A stretch of 64,000 bases of DNA from an uncultured Candidatus Binatia bacterium (GTDB taxonomy: Bacteria; Desulfobacterota; Binatia; UBA9968; JAJDTQ01), in the NCBI GenBank assembly GCA_964291295.2, contig OZ219754.1:2464001-2528000 (forward strand). Direction: 5' to 3'. The translations under genes were made by a program, and so were the position numbers. Below are positions 1 to 18,754 of this stretch, one piece after another (the stretch's first letter is position 1; each line of letters starts with the position of its first letter). The notes beneath the pieces were generated by a model. That model was given only the letters and a program-made list of their open reading frames with translations. It ran no database searches and was not told the origin of the DNA.

Positions 1-56
1 AGCTCATCGGTCATCAGTTCATCAAGCATCTGAGGGATGTGGGGAGACTGTCCTGA
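1..56 (+). CDS. 3' end of upstream gene, probably a DNA (cytosine-5)-methyltransferase (partial)
   Basis: Frame from base 3 reads LIGHQFIKHLRDVGRLS*. TGA at 54-56 overlaps the next ATG (TGATG). The peptide resembles the helix after motif X (GNAVP) of C5-MTases, and MTases are typical neighbours of the downstream gene. Only 17 codons are visible. Confidence 0.4.
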   Translation, partial: LIGHQFIKHLRDVGRLS

Positions 57-3013
57 TGGCTACGTTCAAGACGCGTGCTCGCACACTGGACATGCTCGGT
101 CGGCAACAGATTGCCGGCATTCCGACTGCGATCAGCGAGCTGTTCAAGAACGCGCACGATGCCTATGCTGATCATGTCGAGATCGACTATTACCGCTCGG
201 ATGGCCTGTTCGTCTTGCGAGACGACGGAATCGGTATGAGTCGTGACGATTTCGTGACGCGGTGGCTTACAATCGGAACGGAAAGCAAGTTCGACCCGAA
301 TCGACCCCCACCGCAAGATCCAGACAAGAAACCGCGCCCGATGCTGGGGGAGAAGGGAATCGGAAGGCTTGCGATTGCGACCATTGGCCCGCAGCTTCTG
401 GTTCTCACTCGCCCGAAGGCTGACAACGGAGCCTCCGACCTGACGACAGCGTTCCTGAACTGGGGCATATTCGAATGGCCCGGCATAGACTTGGAGGACA
501 TTGAGATACCTCTACGGTCGTTTGCATCAGGTTCTCTGCCTTCGGCAAGAGACGTGGCGGACATGGTACAAGAATTTGGTAGGAGCGCCAAAAATATCGG
601 GCAGGATGTCGAGCATAACTTGTTGGAGAGGCTTGCAATGGAATTGGATCTCTTCGATATCGACCCGCGAGACATCGACTCCTATCTTGAAAAGCCATCA
701 CTCGGCGCGAACGGCAACGGCACGCATTTCATCATCAAGCCCGCCTGGCCGTTACTGGTTGACGACATCGACGGAGATCCTGCATCTAGCAAGGTAGCCG
801 TGCTGAAAAAGGCAACACCCTTGAAAAAGGCATTGCTGGGATTCAGCAACACCATGATGACACCCGACTCGCGATCCCTAATTCATACCTCATTTCGCGA
901 TCATAAGTCGGTCGACCTCGTCGAAGACCTGATTGCAGAGGGTGAATTCTTCACCGCAAATGAGCTTCAAAACGCAGACCACCGGATGAGCGGTACCTTT
1001 GACGCGTTCGGGCAATTCCGCGGCGAAATCTCGATCTACGGCGAAACAACCACCGATCATGTGATTCCTTGGAGAGGGGCGCGCGGTGTACCCACGCTCT
1101 GTGGTCCGTTCTCCATCGACTTCGCTGCTTTCGAAGGCGACAGCAGACACTCGACAATTCCATATGAGGAGCATGGGAGATTGACAAGCAAAACCGAACA
1201 ATTGGGTGGATTGTACATCTATAGAAACGGCATCCGGGTTCTTCCTTACGGCGACACAGATTACGATTGGCTGGACATAGAGTTTAGGCGAACAAAAAGC
1301 GCTTACTATTATTATTTTTCTCATCGAAAAATGTTCGGAGCAGTGAATCTCGATTCGGAAAGAAATTGGCAACTACAGGAAAAGGCTGGTCGAGAGGGGT
1401 TTCAGGAAAATAGAGCGTATCGTCAATTCAAATCGATTCTTCAAAATTTTTTTTTACAGATGGCGGCAGATTTTTTCCGTACAGAAGGGGCACATTCGGA
1501 GGTATTCGAGCTACGAAAGGCACAACTGTCCAAGGAGGATTATGCAAGAAAACAACGAGAAAAACAAGTTCTGGAGAGAAGAAGACAGTTTCTAGCTGAG
1601 TTGAATTCCTTTTTCGACAAACTCAAGAATGATGATCCGCAAGAAGAGATTTTGGCGTTGACGGAACACGTCGCGGCAGAATTGCAGAAGGTAAGCAGCA
1701 TACCGGACGGTCAACTCGCCGCACACAAAATCTTGGAGCTTGAGCGTCGGGCACAGATGGAGGTCAGAAACTTGGAAGCCCGCTACCGTATTTCACGACC
1801 TCGGATCGGACTGGCCAGGGCTGCAATTCGGGACTGGGAAGTGTACGTCGCAGAGTTTGCTGCGCTCCAAGACAATGTATTCAAGCCGGCACGTACCATG
1901 ATCGATGAGCTGGTCGGTGAAGAAGCAAGAAAGGCCGAATTGTCGCTTGATAGGCGTATCAGGACAGAGGCGGCATTGGACGATCTTGGGGAGGAGGCGC
2001 GGAAGATTACGGGTAAATCGGGGCAAGAAGTACGAGTGGAAGCGAACAAGGTCGCGTCAGAAGCGCGCGAGTTGGCGGGCCGATCTCTGAAGACCGTGGA
2101 ATCGGAACTACGGGAGGTGCTCAGCGAGTTCCAGCGAATGAACCTTACCGAGATGCCTGATGAGCTTTTTGTCGAAACAAGAAGCGCACTGGAGACCAGG
2201 GTATTGAGCGTAACAGAAAAACAAGGAGCATTGTTGCGTTCGGTTCTGGAGCAGCTTCAAGCTGTAGACGTGACGGGAGAAACCTCGACAACTGAGCAGT
2301 TGATGGCCATTGAGCAGCGGAACCTGTTGTTGGAGGAGGAGGCCGAGGCTGACGCGCAGCTGGCGCAGTTAGGAATGGCGATAGAAATCATAAACCACGA
2401 GTTTTCGGGAACAGTGCGGTCGATTCGGAACGGCTTGCGCAGATTGAAGGCTTGGGCTGATGTCAATGAAGAGTTGGGAGAGTTGCACGACAGTATTAGA
2501 ACCAGTTTTGATCACCTTGACGGATATCTGACGCTGTTCACGCCGTTGCAGCGGCGACTCTACAGGAAGCCCGTGGAGATCCGCGGTTCCGAGATTCGGA
2601 CTTTTTTGGAGGAACTGTTCCGTGCGCGTTTGGCACGCCATGCCGTGTCCTTCAAGGCGACAAGAGCCTTTAGAGATGCTAGAATCACTAGCTTTCCATC
2701 GAGCTTCTATCCTGTATTTGTGAATTTGGTGGACAACGCAATTTTTTGGCTGTCGCAACAGAACCCCCAAGAGGAACGAGCCATTGAGCTTGATGAGCGC
2801 GGCGGTGTGTTGCTTGTCTCTGATAACGGACCAGGAGTCGATGTGCGCGACCGGGAGGCGATTTTCGAGTTCGGCTTCAGCAGAAAGCCTGGCGGTCGAG
2901 GGATGGGTTTGCACATTGGGCGGGAAGCTCTACGCCGGGTCGGCTTCGATCTTCAGTTGCTCGAAGGCGACGGTGGCGCAACATTCGGCGTGGTCCCGGT
3001 GACAGAGCTATAG
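56..3013 (+). CDS. GHKL (paraMORC/HSP90-like) ATPase fused to HEF-type histidine kinase
   Basis: N-terminal GHKL motifs ELFKNAHDAYA, DDGIGM, GEKGIGRLA; long coiled coil; H-box IINHEF; C-terminal HATPase motifs NLVDNA, DNGPG, FxxGFS, GRGMGL. Confidence 0.9.
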   Translation: MATFKTRARTLDMLGRQQIAGIPTAISELFKNAHDAYADHVEIDYYRSDGLFVLRDDGIGMSRDDFVTRWLTIGTESKFDPNRPPPQDPDKKPRPMLGEKGIGRLAIATIGPQLLVLTRPKADNGASDLTTAFLNWGIFEWPGIDLEDIEIPLRSFASGSLPSARDVADMVQEFGRSAKNIGQDVEHNLLERLAMELDLFDIDPRDIDSYLEKPSLGANGNGTHFIIKPAWPLLVDDIDGDPASSKVAVLKKATPLKKALLGFSNTMMTPDSRSLIHTSFRDHKSVDLVEDLIAEGEFFTANELQNADHRMSGTFDAFGQFRGEISIYGETTTDHVIPWRGARGVPTLCGPFSIDFAAFEGDSRHSTIPYEEHGRLTSKTEQLGGLYIYRNGIRVLPYGDTDYDWLDIEFRRTKSAYYYYFSHRKMFGAVNLDSERNWQLQEKAGREGFQENRAYRQFKSILQNFFLQMAADFFRTEGAHSEVFELRKAQLSKEDYARKQREKQVLERRRQFLAELNSFFDKLKNDDPQEEILALTEHVAAELQKVSSIPDGQLAAHKILELERRAQMEVRNLEARYRISRPRIGLARAAIRDWEVYVAEFAALQDNVFKPARTMIDELVGEEARKAELSLDRRIRTEAALDDLGEEARKITGKSGQEVRVEANKVASEARELAGRSLKTVESELREVLSEFQRMNLTEMPDELFVETRSALETRVLSVTEKQGALLRSVLEQLQAVDVTGETSTTEQLMAIEQRNLLLEEEAEADAQLAQLGMAIEIINHEFSGTVRSIRNGLRRLKAWADVNEELGELHDSIRTSFDHLDGYLTLFTPLQRRLYRKPVEIRGSEIRTFLEELFRARLARHAVSFKATRAFRDARITSFPSSFYPVFVNLVDNAIFWLSQQNPQEERAIELDERGGVLLVSDNGPGVDVRDREAIFEFGFSRKPGGRGMGLHIGREALRRVGFDLQLLEGDGGATFGVVPVTEL

Positions 3014-3022
3014 GGGAGGGCG

Positions 3023-4582
3023 ATGGCGGACGAATCGATATCTGGCAACGACGACTTGGCGCGGCGTTTCCTTCAAACAGCGGTAGTGGTTGACGACGAG
3101 GCGCATATGCCATTCGCCGGAGATAGTCAGCCAGAGGCAGGACTGGTGGTACCGGGCCGGCGCACACGGACATTGAGCCGGGATAGCCGGGGCACAGCAG
3201 GTCGCGACTCGATTCATACCTTGGATGCAGCTTCGATCATGGATGCCTTTTCAGGCCTTGGTGTCATCTGCGGAGTGGTCGGTCCCACGGATTCAGCGAT
3301 GAAAACGATGAGAAAGGCCGACATCGTGATCCTCGACTGGCTTCTGAAGGACGGCGAGTCCCGGTATACGCTGAAGTTGATTCGGGAACTGCTGGCAGGG
3401 GAAGAAGCGGACAGGAACTCACTTCGAATCGTGGCTATATATACCGGAGAGGCCAGGTTGGAAGAAATTTCCACGGCCGTCTTCGAGGAATTGCAGCAAG
3501 CCGGACTCGATCCCGATTGGGTGGGGGAAACAAAGGTAAAAATCTCATACCGACATGGTTGCGTTGTTCTCTACGCCAAATCCAACGTAAATCTGGTGGA
3601 GCATTTGAAGAGCAGGAGTGTTGCTGAGGAAATCCTGCCGGAGAGGTTGGTAGAGGATTTTGCGTTGATGACTCGCGGTTTACTTCCTGGTATTGCGCTA
3701 ACCTCGCTGACGGCGGTTAGAGAGGGGGCGCATCAGGTCTTGGACCAATTCAGCGCTGAATTGGATCCCGCGTTTCTTGCTCACAGAGCATGTCTTTCCA
3801 GTCCAGAAAATGCAGAACAACAGATCGTAAATCATGTTGCTGAAGAGCTTCGCGGTCTGATGGACAACGCTGTTTCAGGAGTATCTCCCGCAAGCGCGAA
3901 AGCTGTCGAGAGTTGGATACGGCGCAACGGAACGGTGAACTTTGTGTTCGGCGACCGGCGTCTCGATCTGGAACAGACCATCGTGTTGGCGAACAAGGGG
4001 TTGATGGAAAGCGAGCTAAGACATAACGCATTTGAAGGACTCTCTGCCGGCTTCGCGGGCCATGATGCTGGCGGTCTTGATGAGCGGCTGGCTTGGATCA
4101 TGAGTTCCCGAACGGTATACAGAGCGCCACCGCCGATTTTGTGGTTGGGTGCCTTCATCACGATGTCCAAGTCTGATGGCGAACAGCATTTGATCTGTAT
4201 GAGGCCTCGATGTGATTGCGTAAGGTTGAATAAAGAAACTACGTTCTTTTTTCTGCCATTGGCTACCCCAAAGGAAGGAATGGAGCAAATCATCTTAAAC
4301 GTCAATGATACATTTGAGCGACTGGGCATCGAAAGTGATCCAAGCGGCTGGGTTCTTCGACAATTCAAACCATTTGAGGGTAATGGCGTCGTAACCGCAA
4401 CAAAGCGGGAATCAGATGGTGGCTTCGAGTTTGCGGATACCAATGACAATCGGTACAAGTGGCGAGGAGAACTCAAGGCCGAGTATGCTCAAAGGATCGC
4501 CCAGAAATTTGGAACGACTCTGAGTCGCGTTGCGATTGATGAGTCGGAATGGCTTAGGAGGATGGCCAGAAAAGGACGCTGA
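3023..4582 (+). CDS. Atypical response-regulator receiver-domain protein (Response_reg_2-like)
   Basis: VVVDDE acidic pair, IVILDW phosphoacceptor strand, IYTG. SD GGGGAGG upstream. Starts 9 nt after the kinase gene. The C-terminal region with RPRCDCVR is unassigned. Confidence 0.8.
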   Translation: MADESISGNDDLARRFLQTAVVVDDEAHMPFAGDSQPEAGLVVPGRRTRTLSRDSRGTAGRDSIHTLDAASIMDAFSGLGVICGVVGPTDSAMKTMRKADIVILDWLLKDGESRYTLKLIRELLAGEEADRNSLRIVAIYTGEARLEEISTAVFEELQQAGLDPDWVGETKVKISYRHGCVVLYAKSNVNLVEHLKSRSVAEEILPERLVEDFALMTRGLLPGIALTSLTAVREGAHQVLDQFSAELDPAFLAHRACLSSPENAEQQIVNHVAEELRGLMDNAVSGVSPASAKAVESWIRRNGTVNFVFGDRRLDLEQTIVLANKGLMESELRHNAFEGLSAGFAGHDAGGLDERLAWIMSSRTVYRAPPPILWLGAFITMSKSDGEQHLICMRPRCDCVRLNKETTFFFLPLATPKEGMEQIILNVNDTFERLGIESDPSGWVLRQFKPFEGNGVVTATKRESDGGFEFADTNDNRYKWRGELKAEYAQRIAQKFGTTLSRVAIDESEWLRRMARKGR

Positions 4583-6013
4583 CTATTCCAGCCTACGGCA
4601 GCGCGAAATTTGGGACAACTGATAAGGATGTGCCTGTCCGGTTACAACGAGTCCAAGCTCGGGTGCGTAGGCGGCACCCCCGCATGGCTTTCCGGCTTCG
4701 CGCCATCCGACGCCGACGGCAGGGGATCTACAGATCTGACCTCGAGGGAGGATCGCCCTTTCTCCGGCGACACCGGGCCTTGATGACACGAGCATGTCGC
4801 CCCATGCATCGCCGTGCTCCGCCTCGTCCGGCAGCGGCTGCGCCTCCGCCCTGTATCCCATGGCTCGCGCGATGACGGCCGCGGCCTGCGCGGCGGCGTC
4901 ACGCAGCGCGCCGTCGTCGAGATGGGCGTAGATCGCGGTGGTCTCCCGCTTGCGGTGTCCGAGCAGCCATCCGACCGTGGTGAGCCCGACGCCGTTCATG
5001 ACGCCCTGGGAGGCCCAGGTGTGGCGGCAGTCGTGGATGCGAAGGCCGGGAAGCCTCGCCTCGTCGCGGATACCGCACCAGAAGGTGTAGAGCCGGGACG
5101 ATGTGAGGGTCTCGGGGAACACCCGCTCCCGGCCATCCGGCCGCGGCGGTTCCACGATCAGCCGTGCCGCTTCCGGCCCCAGGCAGGTGGTGCGCGGCCC
5201 GGTTTTGGAGCCTTCGATGCGCGCGCTCGCGCCGTCTCCGGTCAGCTCTCCGATCTCGTCCCACCTGATGTTGATGACTTCGGAGAGCCGCGCCCCGGTG
5301 AGCGTCAGCAGCCGGATGGCCGCCACCGGCCAGGGGTGTTCCTCCCGGTGGCGGTCGAGCACCGCGCCGAGACGCTCCAGCTCTTCGCGGTCGAGATAAC
5401 GCGCGACGGGCTTGCGGGGGTTCTTCACGATGTTGGCGCAGGCATCGGGGACATGCTCGCCGAGGTCGCCCCACTGGCGGGCCGTCCCGAGCATGGCGCG
5501 GAGTATCTCGAAGGCGCGGTTGGCGGCGCCGGGCCTGTCCGCGCTGGCGGCGTCGAACCTCGCCGAGACCCGCGCAGGGTCGATGGCGTCGAGCCGGAGC
5601 CTGCCGAAATGCGGCATCAGGCGGTTCTTCAGGTAGATGTCGAAGGTCACGAGCGAGGACGGTTTCCAGCGGTGTTTCCGCCGCGAGCGGTAACGGGCGG
5701 CGAAGTTCCGGAACAGCGGCGCCTTCTCCTTGCGCGGCGGCGTCACGTCCTCGCCGCCCCACAGGCGGGCGAGCACGGCCGCGCCTTCCCGGCGGGCCGC
5801 GTCGAGAGGCAGTTCGGGGAAGCGCCCGAGGGTGATCTTGCGCATGCGTCCTTTCACGCGGGTCTGGACGATCCAGGACCTGACGCCGGAGGGCTGCACC
5901 CTGACCCCGAAATGCGCCAGCAGACTGTCCCACAGGGTGTATTCCCGTTCCGCCGGCTTCGCGGCGGCGACGGCCTTCACGGTGAGCCGGATACGATGCC
6001 TGCCGCCGCTCAT
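4583..6013 (-). CDS. Tyrosine recombinase/integrase 2 with N-terminal arm-binding domain
   Basis: Starts MSGGRHRIRLTVKAV..YTLWDS..FGVRVQPSG (arm-binding type). Catalytic TGAR, SKTG, HDCRH, LGH, TAIYAH. ATG at 6013 overlaps the stop of integrase 1 (ATGA), with SD GGAGGG upstream. Confidence 0.9.
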   Translation of the reverse strand: MSGGRHRIRLTVKAVAAAKPAEREYTLWDSLLAHFGVRVQPSGVRSWIVQTRVKGRMRKITLGRFPELPLDAARREGAAVLARLWGGEDVTPPRKEKAPLFRNFAARYRSRRKHRWKPSSLVTFDIYLKNRLMPHFGRLRLDAIDPARVSARFDAASADRPGAANRAFEILRAMLGTARQWGDLGEHVPDACANIVKNPRKPVARYLDREELERLGAVLDRHREEHPWPVAAIRLLTLTGARLSEVINIRWDEIGELTGDGASARIEGSKTGPRTTCLGPEAARLIVEPPRPDGRERVFPETLTSSRLYTFWCGIRDEARLPGLRIHDCRHTWASQGVMNGVGLTTVGWLLGHRKRETTAIYAHLDDGALRDAAAQAAAVIARAMGYRAEAQPLPDEAEHGDAWGDMLVSSRPGVAGERAILPRGQICRSPAVGVGWREAGKPCGGAAYAPELGLVVTGQAHPYQLSQISRCRRLE

Positions 6014-7152
6014 CGTGTGCCCTCCTTCCCGCTTCCGGTCATGGCGCCGTGTACGATGCCGGAGATGCGCCCGGCCGCCTCGCGGACATGCTCGTCGGCG
6101 AGATGGGCGTAGCGTTCGGTGGAGGCGACATCGGCATGGCCGAGCAGGCGGCCGACGGTGTAGAGGTCGAGACCGCTCATCACGGCATGGGAGGCGAAGG
6201 TATGCCGGCAGTCGTGGATGCGCACGTCGTCCAGCCCGGCGAGATTGCGCAGCTTCTGCCAGCGCAGCCCGAGGTCGGTCATCGGGCCGTCGCCCTTCCT
6301 GTTCGGGAAGACGAAGCGTCCTTCGCGCGGCAGGGTGTTGAGCACCGCCCGCGCGGGCGGGGGAAGCTGGACCGCCTTCGGCCCGGTCTTGGAGTCGGGC
6401 AACACCGCGGGTGTGTCCCGTATCCAGTCCCATTGCAGGCCGGCGATCTCGGACGACCGGGCGCCGGTGAACAGCAGCAGGCGGACGGCGGCGGCGGCCT
6501 GCCGGTCCTCCGCATGGCCGAGCACGAAACCGAGGCGCTTGAGTTCCTCCAGGGAGAGGAACCGCTCGCGCGGCGCCGTCCTGTAGCGCCGCATGTTGCG
6601 GCAGGGGTTGGAGCCCTGCGGGCGAAGGTTCCAGAGTTCCGCCTGCCGCATCATCACCGACAGCACCGGCAGGGTCCGGTTGGCGCTTCCGGGGGCGCCG
6701 CCGAGGGAATCGAACCAGCGCCGCACATCGGCGCGGTCGATCCCGGCGCCGGGCATCGCGCCGAAGAAGGGCACGAGGCGGTGCTTGATCAGGTGGGCGT
6801 TGCCCTTCCTCGTGGAGTGCTTCCAGCGCCGCCCTTGACGGCGCATGAAGTCGGCCGCGAAGTCGGCGAACAGCGGCCCGGTCTCGCGGTCGGCTTTGGC
6901 TTCGGCGATGGCGGCAAGGGCCTTCTCCCTCGCCTCGGCGGCGGTCATCTCGTCGGTCGTGCCGAGGACGATCTTCGGGGCGCCGATGGGGCGTGAGGCC
7001 CGGACGAAGAAGGTCTTGGTCCCGTTCCCGACGACGGTGAAGCCGAAGGCGGGCAGGTTCCTGTCGATGACGGTCAGACCGTATCGTCCGGGTTTCTTCT
7101 CCCTGAAGGTGCGGCGGGCCGTCCGCTCGTTGACGGGGGCATGGATGCGCAT
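6010..7152 (-). CDS. Tyrosine recombinase/integrase 1
   Basis: TGARSSEI, DSKTG, RIHDCRH, LLGH, TERYAH. Start placed at ATG 7152 (MRIHAPV) behind GGAGA. Confidence 0.9.
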   Translation of the reverse strand: MRIHAPVNERTARRTFREKKPGRYGLTVIDRNLPAFGFTVVGNGTKTFFVRASRPIGAPKIVLGTTDEMTAAEAREKALAAIAEAKADRETGPLFADFAADFMRRQGRRWKHSTRKGNAHLIKHRLVPFFGAMPGAGIDRADVRRWFDSLGGAPGSANRTLPVLSVMMRQAELWNLRPQGSNPCRNMRRYRTAPRERFLSLEELKRLGFVLGHAEDRQAAAAVRLLLFTGARSSEIAGLQWDWIRDTPAVLPDSKTGPKAVQLPPPARAVLNTLPREGRFVFPNRKGDGPMTDLGLRWQKLRNLAGLDDVRIHDCRHTFASHAVMSGLDLYTVGRLLGHADVASTERYAHLADEHVREAAGRISGIVHGAMTGSGKEGTR

Positions 7153-7426
7153 GGGCGTGTCTCCGTTGTCTGTTCCCTCGGGCGCCGTCCGTCCCGGGGG
7201 AACGGAACGACGCTCTTGAACGGACAACGCGCCCCGCGTGGGGGACCGCGGCCAGAGGCCGGATCAGGCCCAACCGTCTGTCACGCAACGGAAAACTCCC
7301 CACCGATGCAGGCCGGCCTGGCCTCGCTCTTTGCATCAAGGATGCGTGGGGTGTGCTATGGTTCGCTATGGTTGCGGTCCGCGCACCCGGCCTTCACCGG
7401 CATCGCGCGTACCGGCTTGCCTTCCC

Positions 7427-8314
7427 ATGATCGACGCCACCACCGAAGCCATCCTCTACGCCCTTGCCGCCGGCGTCATCTGGGGCGTGGCCCCGGCCCT
7501 GCTCAGGAAGGGCATGGCCGAGTCCAGCGTGAGCATGGCCACGATGCTGGCCCAGTACGGATCCCTGGCGGCCTTGGTGGCGGCGACCATGTGGCGCGGG
7601 GAGTTCGTGGCGCTGGACTGGCCTCCGCTGCTCTCCTTCATGCTCACGGGTGTTGCCGCCTGCCTGGGGAAAGTCTTTCTCAATCGGGGCATCGCCAGCG
7701 TGGGGGCGTCGAGGTCGGTGACGGTGAAGAACTCCTCGCCGCTCATCACCGTGCTGCTCGGATGGGCGCTGCTGGGCGAGCGGGTGGGTTGGGAGATCAC
7801 CGCGGGGGTGGTGGTGATGGTGGCCGGCGTGCTGTTGCTGACGGTGAGCCCGCTGAAGGGGGGGAAGGCCCCGGACCGACCGGCCGGTCTCATCTATCCG
7901 TTCCTGTCGTCGCTGGCGTTCGGGATCAATCCGATATTCAAGAAGTGGGGACTGGTGGCTGCCGCCGTGCCCGCCCTGGGAACGCTGGTCAACCACATGA
8001 CCGCCACGGTGCTCCTGTTTACCGCCGGCCCGTCGCTGGGCATCCATCCGTGGCGGCGGGAGAGGGTACCGCTCAAGAGCGCGGCGCTCTTCGGCATCTC
8101 CGGCATTGCCGAGGCCATGGCGTCGCTGTGCACGTACAAGGCGTTGCTGCTGGCGTCCGCGGTCCTGGTGGCGCCCATCTGGCGCATCTCGCCGCTCATC
8201 ACCTTTGTCCTGTCCCGTTTCACCCTCCGTGCCCTGGAGAGCGTGACCCCGCGGGACGGTCTGGCCGCGGTTCTCATTGTCGCCGGCGTGTGGGTGCTCG
8301 CCCACGGCAGCTGA
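7427..8314 (+). CDS. EamA/DMT family transporter
   Basis: About 10 hydrophobic helices in two repeats; SPLITVLLGWALLGE motif. Confidence 0.85.
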   Translation: MIDATTEAILYALAAGVIWGVAPALLRKGMAESSVSMATMLAQYGSLAALVAATMWRGEFVALDWPPLLSFMLTGVAACLGKVFLNRGIASVGASRSVTVKNSSPLITVLLGWALLGERVGWEITAGVVVMVAGVLLLTVSPLKGGKAPDRPAGLIYPFLSSLAFGINPIFKKWGLVAAAVPALGTLVNHMTATVLLFTAGPSLGIHPWRRERVPLKSAALFGISGIAEAMASLCTYKALLLASAVLVAPIWRISPLITFVLSRFTLRALESVTPRDGLAAVLIVAGVWVLAHGS

Positions 8315-8395
8315 AGGGCCGCGGTCCGCGGACGGGACGCGGCCGTGCGGCCCCGGGAGACCTGGGAGCACGGCGTTCCCGGCCAGACACCTGAA

Positions 8396-8439
8396 GACCT
8401 GACTCCGCGGCCCGGGGGACCTGACTCCGCGGCCCTGGG
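8396..8439. repeat. 22-bp tandem duplication
   Basis: GACCTGACTCCGCGGCCC core repeated with 22-bp period, upstream of TTGACA at 8471. Confidence 0.8.
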
Positions 8440-8524
8440 GCGAAGCCGGCGGAGGTCCGGTTCCGCGCCGTTGACAAACCCGGCGCGGCCCCGCACACCT
8501 TACGGACTCTCAGGGAGGTGACCG

Positions 8525-9697
8525 ATGGCGGTTTCAGCATTCGAGTACAGCAATCCGCGTGTGGAGCGCATCGTTTTCGGCCGCGGGGTGGTCAGGCGGC
8601 TGGCGGACGAGGTCCGGCGCCTGGAGGCGCGGCGCGTATTCGTGGTGACGTCTCCGTCCATCGCCCGGACGTACCTGCTGGACGCGGTGAGGTCGGCGTT
8701 GGGAGACCTGTGCGCGGGGGTTTTCGACACGGTGAAACCGCACTCGCCCACGGACTCCGTTGCGGTGGCGGCGGGGCAGGCCGCGGCGGTGGCAGCGGAC
8801 GCATTGGTCAGCGTCGGCGGCGGCAGCTCCATCGACACCGCCAAGGGCGTGGCGGCATTCCTCGCCGAGGGACGCCCCCTGAAGGAGCTGGCCACCCGGT
8901 TCATTCCGCCGGATCAGAAGCAAGTGCCGCCCATGCCGGCCCCCAAGTTGCCGCACCTGGCCGTTCCGACGACGTTCTCCGGCGGCGAGTACAGCTATTC
9001 CGCGGGTCTGGCGGAAGCGGGCCGCAAGCTCATCCTGGCCGATTCCAAGTTGTCGCCGCGAACGGTCATGCTGGATCCGGAGGCGGCCCGGACCGCTCCG
9101 CCCAGGCTGCTGGCGGCGTCGGGCATGAACGCCCTGGCCCACTGCGTGGAAGCCGTCTACTCGACCCAGACCCAGACTCTGAGCCAGGCCTGGTGCCTGG
9201 CCGCAATCGGGCCCATTACCACTTTTCTGCCGCGGCTGGTGGCGGACACGAACGACCTCGAAGCCATCGGCGAGATGCAGGTTGCCGCCACACTCTCCAG
9301 CATGGGAGTCTACAGCGCCTGGACCGGCATCCACCACGGCATCGTTCACGTCATCGGCGGCCGCTTCACCGTCCCCCACGCCAATATCCACGCCCTCATG
9401 CTGCCCTACGCCATGCGCTGGAACCTGGACGGCACCACCGAGGCCATGGCCCGCATGGCCCGCGCCATGGGGGTCCGCGAAACCGACGACGCCAAGGCTG
9501 CGGCCGCGGCGCCGGAGGTGGTGTACGGCATGAACGTGGCGATGGGGCTGCCGCTGCGGCTCCGGGAGCTGGAGATTCCGCGCGACGCGCTGCCGTCCCT
9601 GGCCGAGGCGGCGCTGGAAGACATCAGCACCCACAACAACCCCAAGAAGATCCACTCGGCGTCACAGGTGCTGGAGTGCCTGGAGATGGCCTGGTAG
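8525..9697 (+). CDS. Iron-containing alcohol dehydrogenase family, maleylacetate reductase-like
   Basis: VGGGSSIDTAK, VPTT, NALAH, HHGIVH, PHA motifs; SD GGGAGG. Confidence 0.85.
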   Translation: MAVSAFEYSNPRVERIVFGRGVVRRLADEVRRLEARRVFVVTSPSIARTYLLDAVRSALGDLCAGVFDTVKPHSPTDSVAVAAGQAAAVAADALVSVGGGSSIDTAKGVAAFLAEGRPLKELATRFIPPDQKQVPPMPAPKLPHLAVPTTFSGGEYSYSAGLAEAGRKLILADSKLSPRTVMLDPEAARTAPPRLLAASGMNALAHCVEAVYSTQTQTLSQAWCLAAIGPITTFLPRLVADTNDLEAIGEMQVAATLSSMGVYSAWTGIHHGIVHVIGGRFTVPHANIHALMLPYAMRWNLDGTTEAMARMARAMGVRETDDAKAAAAAPEVVYGMNVAMGLPLRLRELEIPRDALPSLAEAALEDISTHNNPKKIHSASQVLECLEMAW

Positions 9698-9919: not shown

Positions 9920-10894
9920 CTATAGCTCCCGGGCGAGTTCCACGACGCGTCTTCGCTGCTCCCGGGTGCCCAGGGGCATGAGCAGGGGAAGGTCGAGGCC
10001 GCCGGCAACGAACGCGTCCAGACGCCGCCGGCATTGTTCCGGGGTTCCGGTGACGGAGTGGGCGTACACCACCTCGTCGCTGATGAGTTCCCTGGCCTCC
10101 TTCCATGCCCGCCGACCGATGGCGTCGGCGAGTCGGTCCTGGTCCACCGTGCCGCCGCCGAGCCGGAGATTCTCGGCGTGGTGCCGGTTGCGGAAGATGT
10201 AGGCGAGGAACGTCCTGGCGGCGTCCATGGCTTGCCGCGGGTCGTCGCCGGCCGAGGCGGCGATGAATCCCGCCACCGTCCCCCGGGCCGTCTTCCCGGC
10301 CCGGGCCGCTCCGGCCTCCACCTCCTGGACGCAGCGCCGGATATAGTCCGGCGTGCAGCCCGCCGACAACAGCACGCCGTCGCCGATTTCGCCCGCCAGC
10401 CGCAGCATCCGGGGCCGCACCGCGGTCATGTAGATGGGGATCTCGCTCGCCGGTACGAGTCCCATGCGGGCCCCGCGCATGGTGAAGACCTCGCCCTCGA
10501 ACGCGACGGTCTCGCCGGCCAGCAGCCGGCGCAGCAGCGTCACGTACTCGCGCATGGTCCGCAACATCCGGTCCGCCTCGATGCCGATCTCCCGCAGCGC
10601 CGCGGGGTTGGCCGTGCCCGCCGTGGCCGCCACCCGTCCGGGGGCGAACTCCTCCATGGTGGCCAGCGCCATGGCGGTGACCATGGGATGCCGGGAGTAG
10701 GGGCTCAGGGGCGCCGGGTTGACCTTGATACGCCCGGTTCTGGCGAGAAACGCCATGGCCGAGGCGATGGAATCCCGGAAGCAGATGTGGTCGGACATCC
10801 AGATGGAATCCATGCCGATGTCATCGGCCAGCCGCGCCAGTTCGATCATTTCCTGGATCGAATAGAAGCCGTCGAAACACAAGCCGGCGTGCAT
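9920..10894 (-). CDS. LLM-class flavin/F420-dependent oxidoreductase (Mer-like)
   Basis: WMSDH, PYSRHP, PRMLRLAGEIGDGVLL, VTGTPEQC. Confidence 0.85.
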   Translation of the reverse strand: MHAGLCFDGFYSIQEMIELARLADDIGMDSIWMSDHICFRDSIASAMAFLARTGRIKVNPAPLSPYSRHPMVTAMALATMEEFAPGRVAATAGTANPAALREIGIEADRMLRTMREYVTLLRRLLAGETVAFEGEVFTMRGARMGLVPASEIPIYMTAVRPRMLRLAGEIGDGVLLSAGCTPDYIRRCVQEVEAGAARAGKTARGTVAGFIAASAGDDPRQAMDAARTFLAYIFRNRHHAENLRLGGGTVDQDRLADAIGRRAWKEARELISDEVVYAHSVTGTPEQCRRRLDAFVAGGLDLPLLMPLGTREQRRRVVELAREL

Positions 10895-10939
10895 GCCGGC
10901 CAGACTAGAACAAGGGCGGCGCGAATGAAAGGCGGTTTC

Positions 10940-12049
10940 TCAATGGAAGCCGGTTTCCAGGATGGCCGGAAGCGCGCCGGCGTCGGCCTCCCGGAGTCCC
11001 ATGCGGGTCAGCGTAAGGCCGTGCCGGCGGTAGTCGGTGTGGTTCATTTCCGAGGCCAGGGTGATGAGTGCGTCGATCACGGGAGTCTCGATCCGCAGCA
11101 GGTCGGCCAGTGCCGCCATGGGCACGAGGCCGTAGCCCACGTCCTCGTGGACATAGCGGTGGTCGTGGGTGGCGGGCGCGACGAGGGTCTTGTTGGGCTC
11201 GCTTTCCTGTGTCGCCTGGAAGACGGACCCGCTTTCCAGTGCGGCGTCCGAGGTGAGGCCGGCGGCGTGGAATATCTCCACGAAGGAGCGCGGCGGCAGC
11301 CCCAGCGCGCGCACGATGTCCAGGCGTTCGCGGTCCACCGCCTCGATGATGCGCGCCACCGCGGGGGAGAGGGCGTGCCGGTAGAACAGCAGGTCGCCGA
11401 CGTGCCGCTCGATCCAGCCGGCGTTGCCGACCATGCCGGCGGGATGCATGATCGCGTTGATGTTGGACAGGCCGGTCTCCAGCACGTTCTCCGCGGGCGT
11501 GATGTTGGGAAACACCGCCGCCATCCCGGGCAGCAGGTCCGGACCCGAGGCAGCCGGGAAGGCCGCGCACCCGAGGTTGGCGGTACGCCGATAGATTTCC
11601 ACCCGGGCCGGACCGGTCATGCGGCAGATGCTGGTAAGGGTGACGGTTTCGCAGCACCGGATCGGGACGCGGCAGCCCGCGCGCCGCAGTGCGTGCGCGA
11701 AGTGCAGGCTGCCGCCGGTCTGGCCGGGGTTCAGATGCACGATGGGGTTTTCGTCCAGCAGCGGCGCCAGGGCGCGGGCCATGAATTCGTGGGCCAGCGC
11801 CGGGGCGGCGATGGTGACGAGGTCGGCGCCGGCCACGGCCTCCCGCAGCACCGGCGTGATCACGCGGGGGCGCCCGAAGGTTTCCCGACCGTACTCCACC
11901 AGCTCGATGCCGCCGCGCTGCCGCAACGGCGCCAAGGTCTGCTCCGAGCGCGAGTAGAGCCGGGTCTCGAAGCCCCGGGCCGCGAGGTCCGCCGCGGTGG
12001 CGCATCCACCGTTGCCGGCGCCCAGGACGGCGACTCTTTCGATGCTCAT
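10940..12049 (-). CDS. NAD/NADP-dependent opine (octopine/nopaline-type) dehydrogenase
   Basis: VAVLGAGNGG, LNPGQTGG, NINAIMHP, HRYVHEDVGYGLVP. Confidence 0.88.
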   Translation of the reverse strand: MSIERVAVLGAGNGGCATAADLAARGFETRLYSRSEQTLAPLRQRGGIELVEYGRETFGRPRVITPVLREAVAGADLVTIAAPALAHEFMARALAPLLDENPIVHLNPGQTGGSLHFAHALRRAGCRVPIRCCETVTLTSICRMTGPARVEIYRRTANLGCAAFPAASGPDLLPGMAAVFPNITPAENVLETGLSNINAIMHPAGMVGNAGWIERHVGDLLFYRHALSPAVARIIEAVDRERLDIVRALGLPPRSFVEIFHAAGLTSDAALESGSVFQATQESEPNKTLVAPATHDHRYVHEDVGYGLVPMAALADLLRIETPVIDALITLASEMNHTDYRRHGLTLTRMGLREADAGALPAILETGFH

Positions 12050-12074
12050 GGTCGAGCCGGATGCCCGGTGTCCA

Positions 12075-13232
12075 TCACCTGTCCGTCCGGTACCGCTCCA
12101 CCTTCTCCTCGTCCAGCTCCACCCCCAGGCCCGGGCGGTGCGGAACCTTCACGGCACCGCCCGCGAACTCCAACGGTTCGGTGACGATATCGTCCCTGTA
12201 ATAGATGCCGGCGATGCGTCCCGTAGCCTCGGCATCCGGCGTGGTGACGGGTATGACGCAGGCGAGGTTCGCGGCGGCGGTGGAGGCGGCCAGATGGACG
12301 TTGGCGGCGTTGCCCACGCCCATTTCCACCGAACCGTTGACATTGCACGGGAATCCCGCAGCCTCGGCGAGCGCGGCCACCTTCTTGGCCCGGAACAGGC
12401 CGCCGGGCTTGGTGGTGTAGAGGGAGATGATGTCCGCCGCCTTCTTCTCGATGATCTCCAGGATGTCCCAGGTGGTCCAGGCGCTTTCGTCGGCCATGAT
12501 CGGCGTGTCCACCCGCCGGGTGACCTCGGCCATGGCGTCGAGGCCCTCCACCGGTTGTTCCATGTAGAGGATGCCGCAGGGCTCCATGGCCCTGATGGTC
12601 CGCACCGCCTCCTTGGCGGACCTGTAGCCGTTGTTGGCGTCCACCGTGAGGTTCATGTCCGGTCCCAGCGCTTCGCGGACGCGCCGCAGCAGTTCGACAT
12701 CGCGCTTCGGCTCCACGCCGCCCTTGAGCTTGATGGTCCCGATGCCTTCCGCCTGGACCCGCCGGACCTCGGCCACCGCATCGTCCATGTCCATGAGCCC
12801 GATGCTGTGGGAGATGGGCACGGCTTCCCGGTAGAGCCCCCCCAGGAGCTGGTAGGCGGGCAGGTCCGCGGCCTTTCCCGCCACGTCGTACAAGGCCATG
12901 TCGATGGCCGCCTTGGAATACGGATGGCCCTTGACCGCCTGGTCCATGAGGGCGTGGATCCACTCGATGCGGCGCGGGTCCTCGCCGACGATGCTCGGTG
13001 CCAGGAAATCCCGGATCACCGCGGCCACCGATGCCGGCGTCTCGCCGTAGTAGCGCATGTGGTCGCCGCCCCAGTCCTTGAGCGCCGGCGCTTCGCCCAA
13101 GCCGGTCCGGCCGTCGTCGGTCTCCAGCCGCACCAGCAGATAGACGCCGATGGGGGTCTTGAGACTTGCCCACTGGTGGACCCGCCGGGTGGGAAGCCTG
13201 ACGGGAATGGTCTCGATGGATCGGATCTTCAT
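12075..13232 (-). CDS. Enolase superfamily, muconate-lactonizing-enzyme subgroup
   Basis: AAIDMALYDVAGK, KLK, VDAN, MEQP, ADES metal-ligand motifs. Confidence 0.88.
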   Translation of the reverse strand: MKIRSIETIPVRLPTRRVHQWASLKTPIGVYLLVRLETDDGRTGLGEAPALKDWGGDHMRYYGETPASVAAVIRDFLAPSIVGEDPRRIEWIHALMDQAVKGHPYSKAAIDMALYDVAGKAADLPAYQLLGGLYREAVPISHSIGLMDMDDAVAEVRRVQAEGIGTIKLKGGVEPKRDVELLRRVREALGPDMNLTVDANNGYRSAKEAVRTIRAMEPCGILYMEQPVEGLDAMAEVTRRVDTPIMADESAWTTWDILEIIEKKAADIISLYTTKPGGLFRAKKVAALAEAAGFPCNVNGSVEMGVGNAANVHLAASTAAANLACVIPVTTPDAEATGRIAGIYYRDDIVTEPLEFAGGAVKVPHRPGLGVELDEEKVERYRTDR

Positions 13233-16907: not shown

Positions 16908-17996
16908 ATGGCATCGGTGCTTTTGTTGGGTCCGGAAGACATGAGCGGTCTCATCACCATGAAGGAGGCGGTGGATGCCATGGAGCGGGGGTATCTCGAC
17001 TGGGCCCGGAACCGTGAACTGGGGGCGTTGCGGCGCCGGGTGCATTCGGTGGCCAACGCCCGGGTGACGGTGCACCAGGGGGCGCCTGATTCCGCCGGGG
17101 TCACGGGGATTCTGACCCACTGCGAGCACGTGATGATCCACGACAACGGCATCCAGACCTACCAGACCCGGGGCCGTCCGGTGCGGGTGATGTTCGACGG
17201 CAACAACGCCGAGCTCAAGTGCATCACGGTGGGGGAACTGCGGGTCCGGGAGTTGCCCGAGGCCAACAACGTGGTGAACGTCCAGACCGCCTGCTCCACC
17301 GCGGTGGGCATCAAGCACTTGGCACGGCAGAGCTCCAGGGTGGTGGGGGTGCTGGGCTCCCGGGCCCAGGCGGAGTGCCAGTTGCTTGCGTGCAAGGCGG
17401 TGGTTCCCGGCCTTGAGGAGGCCAGGGTCTACAGCCCGAATCCGGAAAACCGTACCCGGTTCGCCGCCAGGATGACCGAACTGATGGACATGGAGGTGCG
17501 GCCGGTGGCCACCAGCCGCGAGGCGGTCCAGGATGTGGACGTGCTGTTGTCGGTGACCAACTCCAACGTGCCCACCTTCGACGGCGACTGGCTGGCACCC
17601 GGCGTGCATCTGTGCTCGATCGTCTCCAGCAACATCGGCCTGATGCGCGGCGGCTTCATCCAGCGAAAACGGCGGGAGGTGGACGACAGGACCCTCCAGC
17701 GTTGTGACATCATTGTCTGCAACTCGAAGCGGCAGGAGATCCTGGACGAGCCCGGGGTGCTGTGGGATCCGGTGCAGCAGGGCGTCATCACCTGGGACGA
17801 CGTGTGGGATCTGGGCGAACTGCTGGCCGGACAGGTACCGGGCCGGACTTCCGAAGAGCAGATCAGCTTCTACAAGAACAACGCCTTCTGGGGCGTGGGC
17901 GATCAGGCCATCGGCGAGTTGCTGTACGAGCGCGCGGTGGAGCGGGGGCTCGGCACCGAGCTTCCCATTGACGGCGCCGAGTACCGGGAAGCATAG
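16908..17996 (+). CDS. Ornithine cyclodeaminase/mu-crystallin family protein (second, divergent)
   Basis: IKHLAR, DVLLSVTNS, WLAPGVH, DLGELLAGQVPGRTSEEQISFYKN; SD AAGGAGG. Confidence 0.85.
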   Translation: MASVLLLGPEDMSGLITMKEAVDAMERGYLDWARNRELGALRRRVHSVANARVTVHQGAPDSAGVTGILTHCEHVMIHDNGIQTYQTRGRPVRVMFDGNNAELKCITVGELRVRELPEANNVVNVQTACSTAVGIKHLARQSSRVVGVLGSRAQAECQLLACKAVVPGLEEARVYSPNPENRTRFAARMTELMDMEVRPVATSREAVQDVDVLLSVTNSNVPTFDGDWLAPGVHLCSIVSSNIGLMRGGFIQRKRREVDDRTLQRCDIIVCNSKRQEILDEPGVLWDPVQQGVITWDDVWDLGELLAGQVPGRTSEEQISFYKNNAFWGVGDQAIGELLYERAVERGLGTELPIDGAEYREA

Positions 17997-18004
17997 GCGC
18001 TCCG

Positions 18005-18031
18005 GACCCCGCTCCCGCGGGGAGCGGGGTC
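18005..18031. terminator. Strong GC hairpin after OCD-like gene
   Basis: GACCCCGCTCCC / GGGAGCGGGGTC stem; no clear U-tract. Confidence 0.5.
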
Positions 18032-18069
18032 TGCGTGTTCGAGGATCTCGACGACGAACTCGACGAACG

Positions 18070-18166
18070 AACTTCGATACGCACGTCGTCCGGGCCGTGC
18101 ACGAAGGCGATCCTGAGGCCGGGCCGCAGCGGCCGGGGCTCGGAGAGAAACGCGGCGCCCCGCCGC
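18070..18166 (-). pseudogene. Fragment of a VOC/glyoxalase family gene
   Basis: RGAAFLSEPRPLRPGLRIAFVHGPDDVRIEV resembles the C-terminal strands of VOC proteins (F.xP.G.xIE); no N-terminal half is present. Confidence 0.5.
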
Positions 18167-18388
18167 CCGGGAATATCCGAACAAGGCGGCGGCGCGACAG
18201 GGAACTGCTCGCAAGCTGTTGGCTTCATTGATTCAGCCCAAGCCAGCTCGGGGTTGTTCGGACCTTCCCTTGAGGTCCGCCGCGGCGAGCCTTGAAGTCG
18301 CGGGTCGGGCTGTTAGATTTCTTGCAGGGCATGGTTTCGTCCTCGCCGACATTGGTCTGCCGCGAGGAGAAGGCCGGCAGGTGCCGCA

Positions 18389-18754
18389 GTGATGCTATCG
18401 ATCTGGGTGGGGATATTCGGCGTGCTGGCCGGTGCGCTGGTTGCGGCGCGGCTGGGGGATCGCTCCGGCGGGCCCGAGCGGTATTGGCTCACGGGGCTGG
18501 CGGCCGTGGCGCCGGCCTGGATCATCGCACTGACGGTGCTGCTGGGGGGGCTGTCGGGGGAGAACCCGGACAAGAGCATGAAGGCCCTGCTGGCGGCCTC
18601 CACCGCCAGCGGGCTCCTGGGTGTCATCGCCACGGAGTTTTGCGTGAGGTGGGTCAAGGCGCGGCCGGCGGCGGCGCCCGGCGCCCTGTACTGGTTCCTG
18701 GGCGTGGTTGCGTTGCTCCCCTCCTGGGGGTTCATGCTGTGGAGGTTGCCATGA
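18389..18754 (+). CDS. Hypothetical membrane protein (~4 TM)
   Basis: Hydrophobic ORF whose stop overlaps the next ATG (ATGA). Confidence 0.65.
   Translation: MMLSIWVGIFGVLAGALVAARLGDRSGGPERYWLTGLAAVAPAWIIALTVLLGGLSGENPDKSMKALLAASTASGLLGVIATEFCVRWVKARPAAAPGALYWFLGVVALLPSWGFMLWRLP

Follow-up and report, generated by a model that had tools for sequence, protein, structure and literature searches.

At the head of the window analyzed here, a stretch of 64,000 nucleotides from an uncultured Candidatus Binatia bacterium (positions 2464001-2528000 of its contig), two adjacent open reading frames (ORFs) encode a 985-amino acid (aa) histidine kinase-like protein and a 519-aa receiver-like protein, to which we refer as the kinase and the receiver protein (Table 1). 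Together with the gene for a C5 cytosine DNA methyltransferase (C5 methylase) that ends just upstream of them, they constitute a typical member of the published HEF_HK/Response_reg_2 cassette, and this membership is secure. The class itself is not new, having been reported from an in silico study in 2021 (PMC8011034); new here is the toxin-like fold predicted for the output part of the receiver protein. The sequence-only reading of the window, which had proposed a phosphorelay-controlled defense module, left out this output domain, where the mechanistic question lies, and as a whole is partly supported.

The gene junctions described in that reading can be read directly in the sequence. The TGA stop codon of the methylase gene at 54-56 and the ATG of the kinase gene at 56-58 share a TGATG junction, the kinase gene ends with a TAG at 3011-3013, and the ATG of the receiver gene at 3023 follows after a 9-nt gap, gggagggcg, which provides a Shine-Dalgarno-like, GGAGG-like site before the receiver gene. 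The C5 methylase that had been expected upstream and the Vsr protein that had been considered possible there are both present. The C5 methylase has 360 aa and its gene starts outside of the window at contig position 2462974 (L001 474..1556), spanning position 18974 of L002, the 20 kb stretch upstream of the window, to window position 56; the protein is recognized by Pfam (DNA_methylase PF00145, 4.6e-51) and PADLOC (MTase_II, 3.7e-85) and contains the motifs FAGCGG, PCQ, ENVPGL and QSRRR. In the upstream 20 kb, hsdR, hsdM, hsdS, vsr and the C5 methylase gene form a single forward-strand operon with overlapping stops and starts that reaches into the kinase gene, and in this genome the cassette is translationally coupled to a type I restriction-modification (R-M) operon. 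The complete operon comprises hsdRMS, vsr, dcm, the kinase gene and, as its last gene, the receiver gene.

The kinase is composed of, in order, a paraMORC-type GHKL ATPase domain, a conserved middle domain, a coiled coil-like linker, the HEF_HK dimerization/phosphotransfer (DHp) domain and a kinase catalytic ATP-binding (CA) domain. The two GHKL folds and the H-box INHEF noticed in the sequence alone are borne out by matches above the Pfam gathering cut-offs to HATPase_c_3 (residues 24-130, 54.4 bits vs 25), HEF_HK (residues 771-837, 99.4 bits vs 24.1, 1.6e-28) and HATPase_c (residues 884-978, 58.4 bits vs 26.4, 1.1e-15), and the family names given at that stage, HEF_HK together with Response_reg_2, were the correct ones. 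Also as stated there, the kinase has no transmembrane segment, the highest Kyte-Doolittle mean over 19 residues being 1.07. In an alignment of 12 kinase homologs with identities down to 27%, residues E28, N32, D56, G58, G60, G98, K100, G101, G103 and T223 of the N-terminal ATPase domain are invariant in all 12 proteins, and the Bergerat motifs D56xGxG and G98xKGxG are intact as in paraMORC GHKL ATPases. A profile of residues ~26-124 weakly matches the N-domains of GRP94/Hsp90 (1e-4) and MutL (5e-4). The NCBIfam model of the BbrUII/HgiDII restriction enzymes (NF050001) matches at 67.1 bits (1.1e-18) over residues 9-126, i.e. below its full-length cut-off of 550 bits and over the ATPase fold only.

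The middle domain of the kinase matches no Pfam family, no protein sequence in the PDB and no nuclease family or motif, and a search of the ESM Atlas with residues 225-480 returned unnamed clusters only. Its block 384-452 is rich in positions that are invariant in the 12 kinases, including D404, E409, R412 and K414. We presume that this domain is a transducer; an invariant Lys at a position like that of K414 would be expected of the transducer domain of GHKL proteins such as MutL and GyrB. The linker, 60% of which is E, K, R, Q, L or A, has the lowest conservation within the kinase and is probably a coiled coil. In the kinase core, H781 and E782 of the H-box are invariant in 12 of 12 proteins, as are the N box (N890/N894), the G1 box (D923-G925-P926-G927), F937 and the G2 box (G947-R948-G949-G951) of the CA domain, and the profile of residues 757-982 matches those of solved kinases (ThkA, 3a0r, 2e-17; also ZraS and HK853).

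The receiver protein consists of three domains, i.e. a REC domain, a helical domain and a domain with a predicted MazF/Kid/CcdB-type fold. Response_reg_2 matches residues 16-159 with 99.7 bits (Pfam gathering cut-off 27), and the protein contains no transmembrane segment, the peak Kyte-Doolittle mean of 1.65 at residue 69 falling within the confidently folded receiver core. The AlphaFold model of the full protein has a pLDDT of 90.0 and a pTM of 0.86. In the receiver, earlier described as atypical, the REC fold is canonical and superimposes on KdpE (VIA Z 12.4, rmsd 2.5 Å, 119 residues aligned), and the atypical element is, judged from the model, an insert at residues 28-66 that is poorly conserved and modeled with low confidence. 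Among 76 receiver homologs with identities down to 26%, D24, the acceptor D105 and K186 never vary, and at least 95% of the proteins retain D25 and T141. The residues that had been singled out for mutagenesis (E28, N32 and H781 in the kinase and D105 in the receiver protein) are all invariant. Similarly, all residues for His-to-Asp transfer are conserved in the two proteins and this chemistry is predicted on the basis of the alignments. The mean identity of the 76 homologs to the query is alike for the REC, helical and MazF-type fold domains (33-36%). The gene call for the receiver protein in the protein collection is 491 aa long (95% coverage) and begins later than the 519-aa ORF (region 3023..3109). 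The alignments with homologs begin at residue 1, and F16, L17, D24 and D25, all of them conserved, precede the later start; the short version loses strand beta-1 and the acidic pair, and because the D24/D25 pair is kept in the long version, we regard the 519-aa start as the real one.

A search for the output domain with the full-length model was abandoned because the REC domain filled both VIA lists: all of the best 50 matches cover the REC domain and nearly all of them are receiver domains. Residues 200-519 were therefore folded alone (pLDDT 93.7, pTM 0.84). In an exhaustive VIA search of this model against 48,161 representative chains, the top 11 are all toxins of the MazF/Kid/CcdB superfamily (Z 9.2-6.3), with MazF-mt3 (Z 9.2, rmsd 2.5 Å, 97 of 105 residues), CcdB (Z 8.1, rmsd 2.5 Å, 87 of 95 residues) and Kid (Z 7.5) among them; only five chains in the library reach Z 8, and the toxins are followed by the type III toxin CptN at Z 5.7. 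The matches cover model residues ~172-305, i.e. protein residues ~371-504, and extend over the SH3-like barrel and the C-terminal helix of the toxin superfamily. Likewise, VIA within the top 1,000 Foldseek chains ranks MazF/Kid-type toxins as all of the best 40 PDB entries (Z 9.2-6.9), after which Z drops to 4.7, and Foldseek itself assigns the MazF chains a probability of 1.00 and a target-normalized TM of 0.54-0.64. The viral fold library BFVD gave weak PemK-like matches only (E at least 8.8e-3), and residues 366-519 retrieved unnamed clusters from the ESM Atlas with the exception of one Response_reg_2-tagged cluster (score 0.78).

With an isoelectric point of 8.85, the MazF-type fold domain is the sole basic part of the two proteins, all other domains of which are acidic. 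C392, C397, D398 and R401 (window 4196..4225) are conserved after strand 2 of this domain and R233, D248, H254, R255 and E275 (window 3719..3847) in the helical domain; these two clusters of polar residues are almost invariant and could jointly form a metal-binding or active site at the domain interface. The helical domain gave generic helical fold matches only (VIA Z at most 6.0), and its profile has no similarity to 20 PemK toxins. Conservation within the receiver protein peaks in the C-terminal tail DESEWLRR (59% mean identity), with E509 being invariant and W510 and R512 conserved; one idea, by analogy to the MazE-MazF complex, is that this acidic-Trp tail might mimic an antitoxin peptide.

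Table 1. Features of the cassette, its operon and its flank. Coordinates refer to the window except where L002, the 20 kb upstream stretch, is named.
Feature	Coordinates	Strand	Basis
Histidine kinase-like protein gene (985 aa)	56..3013	+	ORF listing, Pfam, alignment, profile comparison
N-terminal Bergerat-fold ATPase, residues 1-230	56..745	+	Pfam HATPase_c_3, alignment
Conserved middle domain, residues 231-480	746..1495	+	Alignment
Variable linker, residues 481-760	1496..2335	+	Composition, conservation
HEF_HK dimerization/phosphotransfer domain, residues 771-837	2366..2566	+	Pfam, alignment
Kinase catalytic ATP-binding domain, residues 884-978	2705..2989	+	Pfam HATPase_c, alignment
Receiver-like protein gene (519 aa)	3023..4582	+	ORF listing, Pfam, homolog alignment, structure model
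REC domain, residues 16-199	3068..3619	+	Pfam Response_reg_2, VIA fold match, conservation
Helical domain, residues 200-364	3620..4114	+	Structure model
Predicted MazF/Kid/CcdB-fold beta-barrel domain, residues ~365-505	4115..4537	+	VIA searches, isoelectric point
C-terminal acidic-Trp helix DESEWLRR	4538..4579	+	Conservation
C5 cytosine DNA methyltransferase gene, 3' end	1..56	+	Pfam DNA_methylase, PADLOC MTase_II, junction reading
vsr	L002 18477..18977	+	Pfam Vsr PF03852 1.4e-27
hsdS	L002 ~17311..18480	+	Pfam and PADLOC
hsdM	L002 15614..17317	+	Pfam and PADLOC
hsdR	L002 13312..15681	+	Pfam and PADLOC
Tyrosine integrase 1	4583..5950 (start approximate)	-	Pfam Phage_integrase 8.6e-15, Arm-DNA-bind_3
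Tyrosine integrase 2	6010..7227	-	Pfam Phage_integrase 4.2e-18

Both proteins have hundreds of full-length relatives, and this places their features far beyond chance. For the receiver protein, clustering at 50% identity gives 1,556 clusters with E<=1e-3, 697 of them with E<=1e-30; most of the 150 receiver clusters listed are full length, and the architecture is constant across the homologs listed. The best 120 kinase homologs are 74-100% identical to the query, have 978-1000 aa and contain the same three domains throughout, and among the matches listed kinases with 74-85% identity are found on scores of unrelated contigs. In a phylum-wide sample of 401 genomes, five, our own included, have PF19192 above the cut-off. 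Sequenced plasmids seldom carry the cassette: matches were obtained in two of 72,556 records, one of which was examined (H2, P. syringae) and holds a decayed copy disrupted by an insertion sequence. The cassette was found in none of 50,697 phage genomes and is present on 8 IMG/VR contigs.

The gene context was counted in 10 loci with upstream sequence, i.e. the window and L003, L004, L012-L015, L037, L041 and L043. Left out were L036, which ends at the receiver gene, L038-L040, which have the same match statistics as L037, L042, which has an L037-like ORF layout, G285/L011, which is under the cut-off, and the decayed L044; a single-sequence contig scan gave three loci, from which L005, a 1,089-bp fragment, was dropped. 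The order C5 methylase, kinase, receiver is found in 10 of 10 loci and Vsr is adjacent in six. An HNH_2 nuclease is present in two loci and an HTH_3 gene lies upstream in one (L037); among the Pfam-annotated neighborhoods, the cassette lacks a recognized stand-alone nuclease in 8 of 10, window included. Type I hsdRMS genes are fused upstream in the window and L003 (L003 hsdRMS 90..3934), and the two loci share 79% identity in HsdR, 84% in HsdM, 51% in HsdS and 73% in the C5 methylase. The linkage to defense functions anticipated by the sequence-only reading is evident from this type I R-M system and the integrases downstream as well as from the neighborhoods of relatives: integrases (window, L043) and transposases (L015, L037) are neighbors, L041 carries the cassette in a P2-like prophage region together with an AAA_15/AAA_21 ATPase, and in L014 it lies beside TumE and AbiEi/AbiEii genes.

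Three further observations concern individual relatives. Two of the copies are decayed: in the IMG/VR contig L042, ORFs of 150 and 391 aa are what is left of a broken receiver gene (7917..9538). In L044, a plasmid of Pseudomonas syringae, an 83-aa kinase remnant lies beside an IS5 transposase, and of the receiver gene 268 aa remain (6715..8238). In L004, from a related metagenome-assembled genome, a second C5 methylase of 451 aa lies directly 3' of the cassette and is followed by family-less ORFs of 220 and 128 aa (9966..12413); this region may represent a type II R-M system of its own, the nuclease of which has escaped recognition.

Our data add to an existing description of the cassette. Bellieny-Rabelo, Pretorius & Moleleki (2021, PMC8011034), in an in silico study, report 644 regions in which HEF_HK (PF19191) and Response_reg_2 (PF19192) genes are linked in 91.6%, with a C5 methylase upstream and Vsr and HNH_2 nearby, and derive the cassette from paraMORCs. 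The locus described here has the architecture of their group 1 (HATPase_c_3, HEF_HK and HATPase_c; 174 of 222 sequences) and shares with their module the adjacent Response_reg_2 gene, the upstream C5 methylase, the nearby Vsr and the solubility of the proteins. In that paper, Response_reg_2 proteins are reported to have no other known domain, no effector is named and the only function proposed is a possible regulation of R-M systems. By contrast, the remaining ~320 residues of our receiver protein are made up of a helical and a predicted MazF/Kid/CcdB-fold domain; moreover, the translational fusion to type I hsdRMS in this genome and in L003 is an addition to the cassette as described there. 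In the open literature searched, we found no link of the family to MazF, PemK or CcdB, and of the two papers found there to cite PMC8011034, neither concerns the cassette by title or abstract.

Three other groups of systems share parts of this design. ParaMORCs were defined in R-M operons with methylases and Vsr, and fusions of paraMORCs to nucleases are known (Iyer, Abhiman & Aravind 2008, PMC2292703; likewise VcSduA, PMC12137116). In the text of PMC2292703, the word receiver is absent, and the sole mention of histidine kinase is where GHKL is spelled out. As in paraMORC, BbrUII and HgiDII proteins, the kinase has an N-terminal Bergerat ATPase with intact motifs, and its gene shares an operon with those of a cytosine methylase and Vsr; unlike in these proteins, the C-terminal partner is a histidine kinase core and not a nuclease or helicase. 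In Ambrosia (AbrR-AbrA-AbrB-AbrC-AbrD; van den Berg et al., bioRxiv 10.1101/2025.09.30.679545), which according to its authors blocks phages experimentally, one operon encodes an XRE regulator, an N6-adenine methylase, a HATPase/histidine kinase protein, a REC protein and an essential HNH nuclease. Our operon resembles it in combining a methylase with a HATPase/kinase protein and a REC protein and differs from it by the C5 methylase and Vsr, the lack of an XRE or HNH gene and the MazF-type output fold, a comparison that concerns the described architecture and not the AbrB and AbrC sequences. In view of these two precedents (PMC8011034 and the analogous Ambrosia), the novelty of the module had been overstated in the sequence-only reading.

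In Detocs (DtcA-DtcB-DtcC; Rousset et al., bioRxiv 10.1101/2023.01.24.525353), the two-component architecture is itself an abortive infection system: mutation of the kinase His or the receiver Asp is reported to abolish defense, and the response regulator carries, instead of a DNA-binding domain, an effector domain that arrests the cell, with effectors being swappable. Detocs comprises a TPR sensor kinase, the receiver-only "buffer" DtcB and mostly a PNP ATP-nucleosidase effector, and has no methylase, whereas the locus described here combines a MORC/MutL-type ATPase sensor with a methylase, Vsr and a MazF-type output fold; neither a TPR sensor kinase nor a DtcB-type buffer nor a PNP effector was found at the locus in the ORF listing and by Pfam. 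A PADLOC scan of the kinase and the receiver protein gave weak REase_II matches only (4.8e-9).

Combining the conserved residues with the fold comparisons and the gene neighborhoods, we suggest, in what we judge to be an evenly balanced case, that the cassette is a methylation-linked module for defense or addiction, the toxin-like output of which is set free by His-to-Asp transfer. In this model, (i) the C5 methylase would mark host DNA and Vsr would mend the T:G mismatches resulting from deamination of 5-methylcytosine, which are the established functions of these families, (ii) the soluble kinase would use its N-terminal MutL/MORC-type ATPase and middle domain for sensing, probably of DNA or its methylation state, (iii) ATP-driven changes would travel along the coiled coil to the DHp domain, (iv) H781 would be autophosphorylated and the phosphate handed to D105 of the receiver protein, as suggested by the conserved catalytic residues, (v) phosphorylation would release or assemble the output consisting of the helical domain and the basic MazF/Kid/CcdB-fold domain, and (vi) this output, by acting on nucleic acid or an essential target in the manner of a toxin, would halt the invader or the infected cell. 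In this model, the cassette could do without a separate restriction nuclease. Four lines of evidence lie behind this model: the conserved catalytic residues, the constant three-domain receiver protein, a modeled fold that is restricted to toxins, and the lack of a nuclease gene in the operon. A function in defense or addiction as such is likely in view of the genomic context and the analogy to Ambrosia and Detocs. A more specific version, which we put forward tentatively as possible rather than probable, is that phosphorylation gates a MazF/CcdB-fold toxin with a built-in inhibitor, for which the helical domain or the acidic-Trp C-terminal helix would be the candidates, in a restriction-free, methylation-guarded form of abortive infection in which the MORC-like ATPase would read DNA or its methylation and a His-to-Asp relay would turn this signal into release of the toxin.

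Several observations weigh against the release of a toxin-like output. The toxin likeness of the C-terminal domain is, as far as the model goes, at the level of the fold only: Foldseek E-values for MazF chains are no better than 3.5e-3, Z scores of 8-9 are in the range that VIA itself terms "middling", hhalign of the C-terminal profile against 20 genuine PemK toxins gave a probability of 0.10 with three columns aligned, and neither PemK nor CcdB is among the 25 Pfam families listed at E<=1 for the 76 receiver homologs (11 further single-member families lie outside of these 25). CcdB and MazF are themselves not known to share detectable sequence similarity, so that the missing signal is compatible with a common ancestry. 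The operon contains no separate antitoxin gene, with the receiver gene abutting an integrase gene, and there is no stand-alone version of the C-terminal domain among the matches, only 32 short ones of 51-282 aa, 31 of which are 50-80% and one 35% identical to the receiver protein; we read these as fragments or broken genes. Thus, the domain shares with MazF/Kid/CcdB toxins the fold of residues ~371-504, and differs from them in the lack of sequence and profile similarity, in the lack of an antitoxin gene and in being fused behind REC and helical domains. Restriction nucleases often escape Pfam, and the lack of a recognized nuclease in relatives is therefore weak evidence; moreover, the middle domain of the kinase could hide a nuclease. 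In the literature covered, we found no experiments on the HEF_HK/Response_reg_2 family. Finally, AbrC of Ambrosia is reported to contain a winged helix-turn-helix and its authors favor a transcriptional role (10.1101/2025.09.30.679545).

This last point leads to the most probable of the alternatives, even if we consider it unlikely: as proposed for Ambrosia, the kinase would sense infection and the phosphorylated receiver protein would bind DNA and switch on the methylase or other genes, making it a regulator and not an effector. In Ambrosia, the D60A substitution in the receiver abolishes defense and cluster reporters are induced upon infection (10.1101/2025.09.30.679545), the control of R-M systems is also the speculation in PMC8011034, and the REC domain described here matches mostly receivers of transcription factors (KdpE, PhoB, OmpR-family). 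However, no DNA-binding family was detected by Pfam in the 519-aa protein or among the 25 families listed for its 76 homologs, fold searches with residues 200-519 gave no helix-turn-helix or winged-helix match and MazF/Kid/CcdB as the sole specific match, and in the window the operon closes with the receiver gene and offers no nuclease gene for induction.

A second alternative, to which we assign a low probability, is that the cassette has no role in defense and is instead a selfish addiction module, or an epigenetic or housekeeping regulator that would monitor the methylation or the nucleotide pool of the cell itself and arrest growth upon loss of the element. The cassette carries its own methylase in 10 of 10 loci; R-M modules commonly act as addiction elements, as discussed in PMC8011034, and the genes in that study were found through their induction in planta, with nucleoside triphosphate sensing being suggested. 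The company of type I R-M, AbiE, TumE, a prophage hotspot and integrases argues for defense instead, as does the activity against phages reported for the analogous Ambrosia and Detocs systems. Because addiction and defense are compatible, this alternative is a variant of the release model and not its opposite.

The least probable alternative in our estimation, that the 985-aa protein is itself an ATP-dependent, HgiDII/BbrUII-like paraMORC restriction enzyme with its catalytic site in the middle domain and the kinase-receiver part as a brake or timer, could draw on the BbrUII/HgiDII and REase_II matches of the N-terminus, the invariant residues of block 384-452 and the known paraMORC-nuclease fusions, but the restriction enzyme match is limited to the ATPase fold, residues 231-480 contain no nuclease family or motif, the invariant Lys fits a GHKL transducer such as those of MutL and GyrB, and the conserved 350-aa output on the three-domain receiver protein would be left unexplained.

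Seen merely as another copy of the family described in 2021, the locus is ordinary. With 1,556 receiver clusters, the cassette nevertheless ranks among the most widespread of those R-M-associated modules whose mechanism is not known. If the phospho-released toxin fold is correct, it would explain the presence of a methylase without a restriction enzyme in most cassettes, and it would make the receiver protein the first representative of the MazF/CcdB toxin fold to be controlled by a two-component system. It would also tie MORC-type ATPases, which are immune and epigenetic factors in eukaryotes too, to the output of a phosphorelay.

The cassette lies on a low-GC block, read as an island, that is bounded by the two integrase genes. 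The integrase 1 gene is convergent with the cassette and its stop codon at 4583-4585 abuts that of the receiver gene at 4580-4582. The GC content is ~0.69 in hsdR and hsdM, 0.53-0.61 over hsdS, vsr, dcm and the kinase and receiver genes, and again 0.69 in the integrase genes, with the step from 0.53 to 0.69 lying exactly at the junction of the receiver and integrase stop codons. Moreover, the integrase 1 ORF extends ~110 residues beyond the region of the catalytic Tyr (window 4583..4900). One possibility is that the low-GC cassette entered the integrase 1 gene at its 3' end by insertion or recombination. Because hsdR and hsdM have a host-like GC content and the low-GC part begins with hsdS, the data also suggest a mosaic of hsdRMS and cassette that was joined within or near hsdS. 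The fusion of the cassette to hsdRMS recalls the way in which the anticodon nuclease PrrC is embedded in an R-M system.

Housekeeping genes lie to the left of about L002 position 8150 and to the right of window position 7230; at the island ends, no tRNA was found, and no direct repeat >15 bp is shared by the left flank and the integrase side. The interval L002 8637..13300, situated between hsdR and the housekeeping genes, includes ~3.5 kb of very GC-rich DNA (up to 0.75), the ORFs of which, a minus-strand one of 816 aa among them, are without a family match in Pfam and PADLOC and may be further island cargo or spurious. The same interval encodes a YAcAr/YspA-type SLOG-domain protein (3.8e-23).

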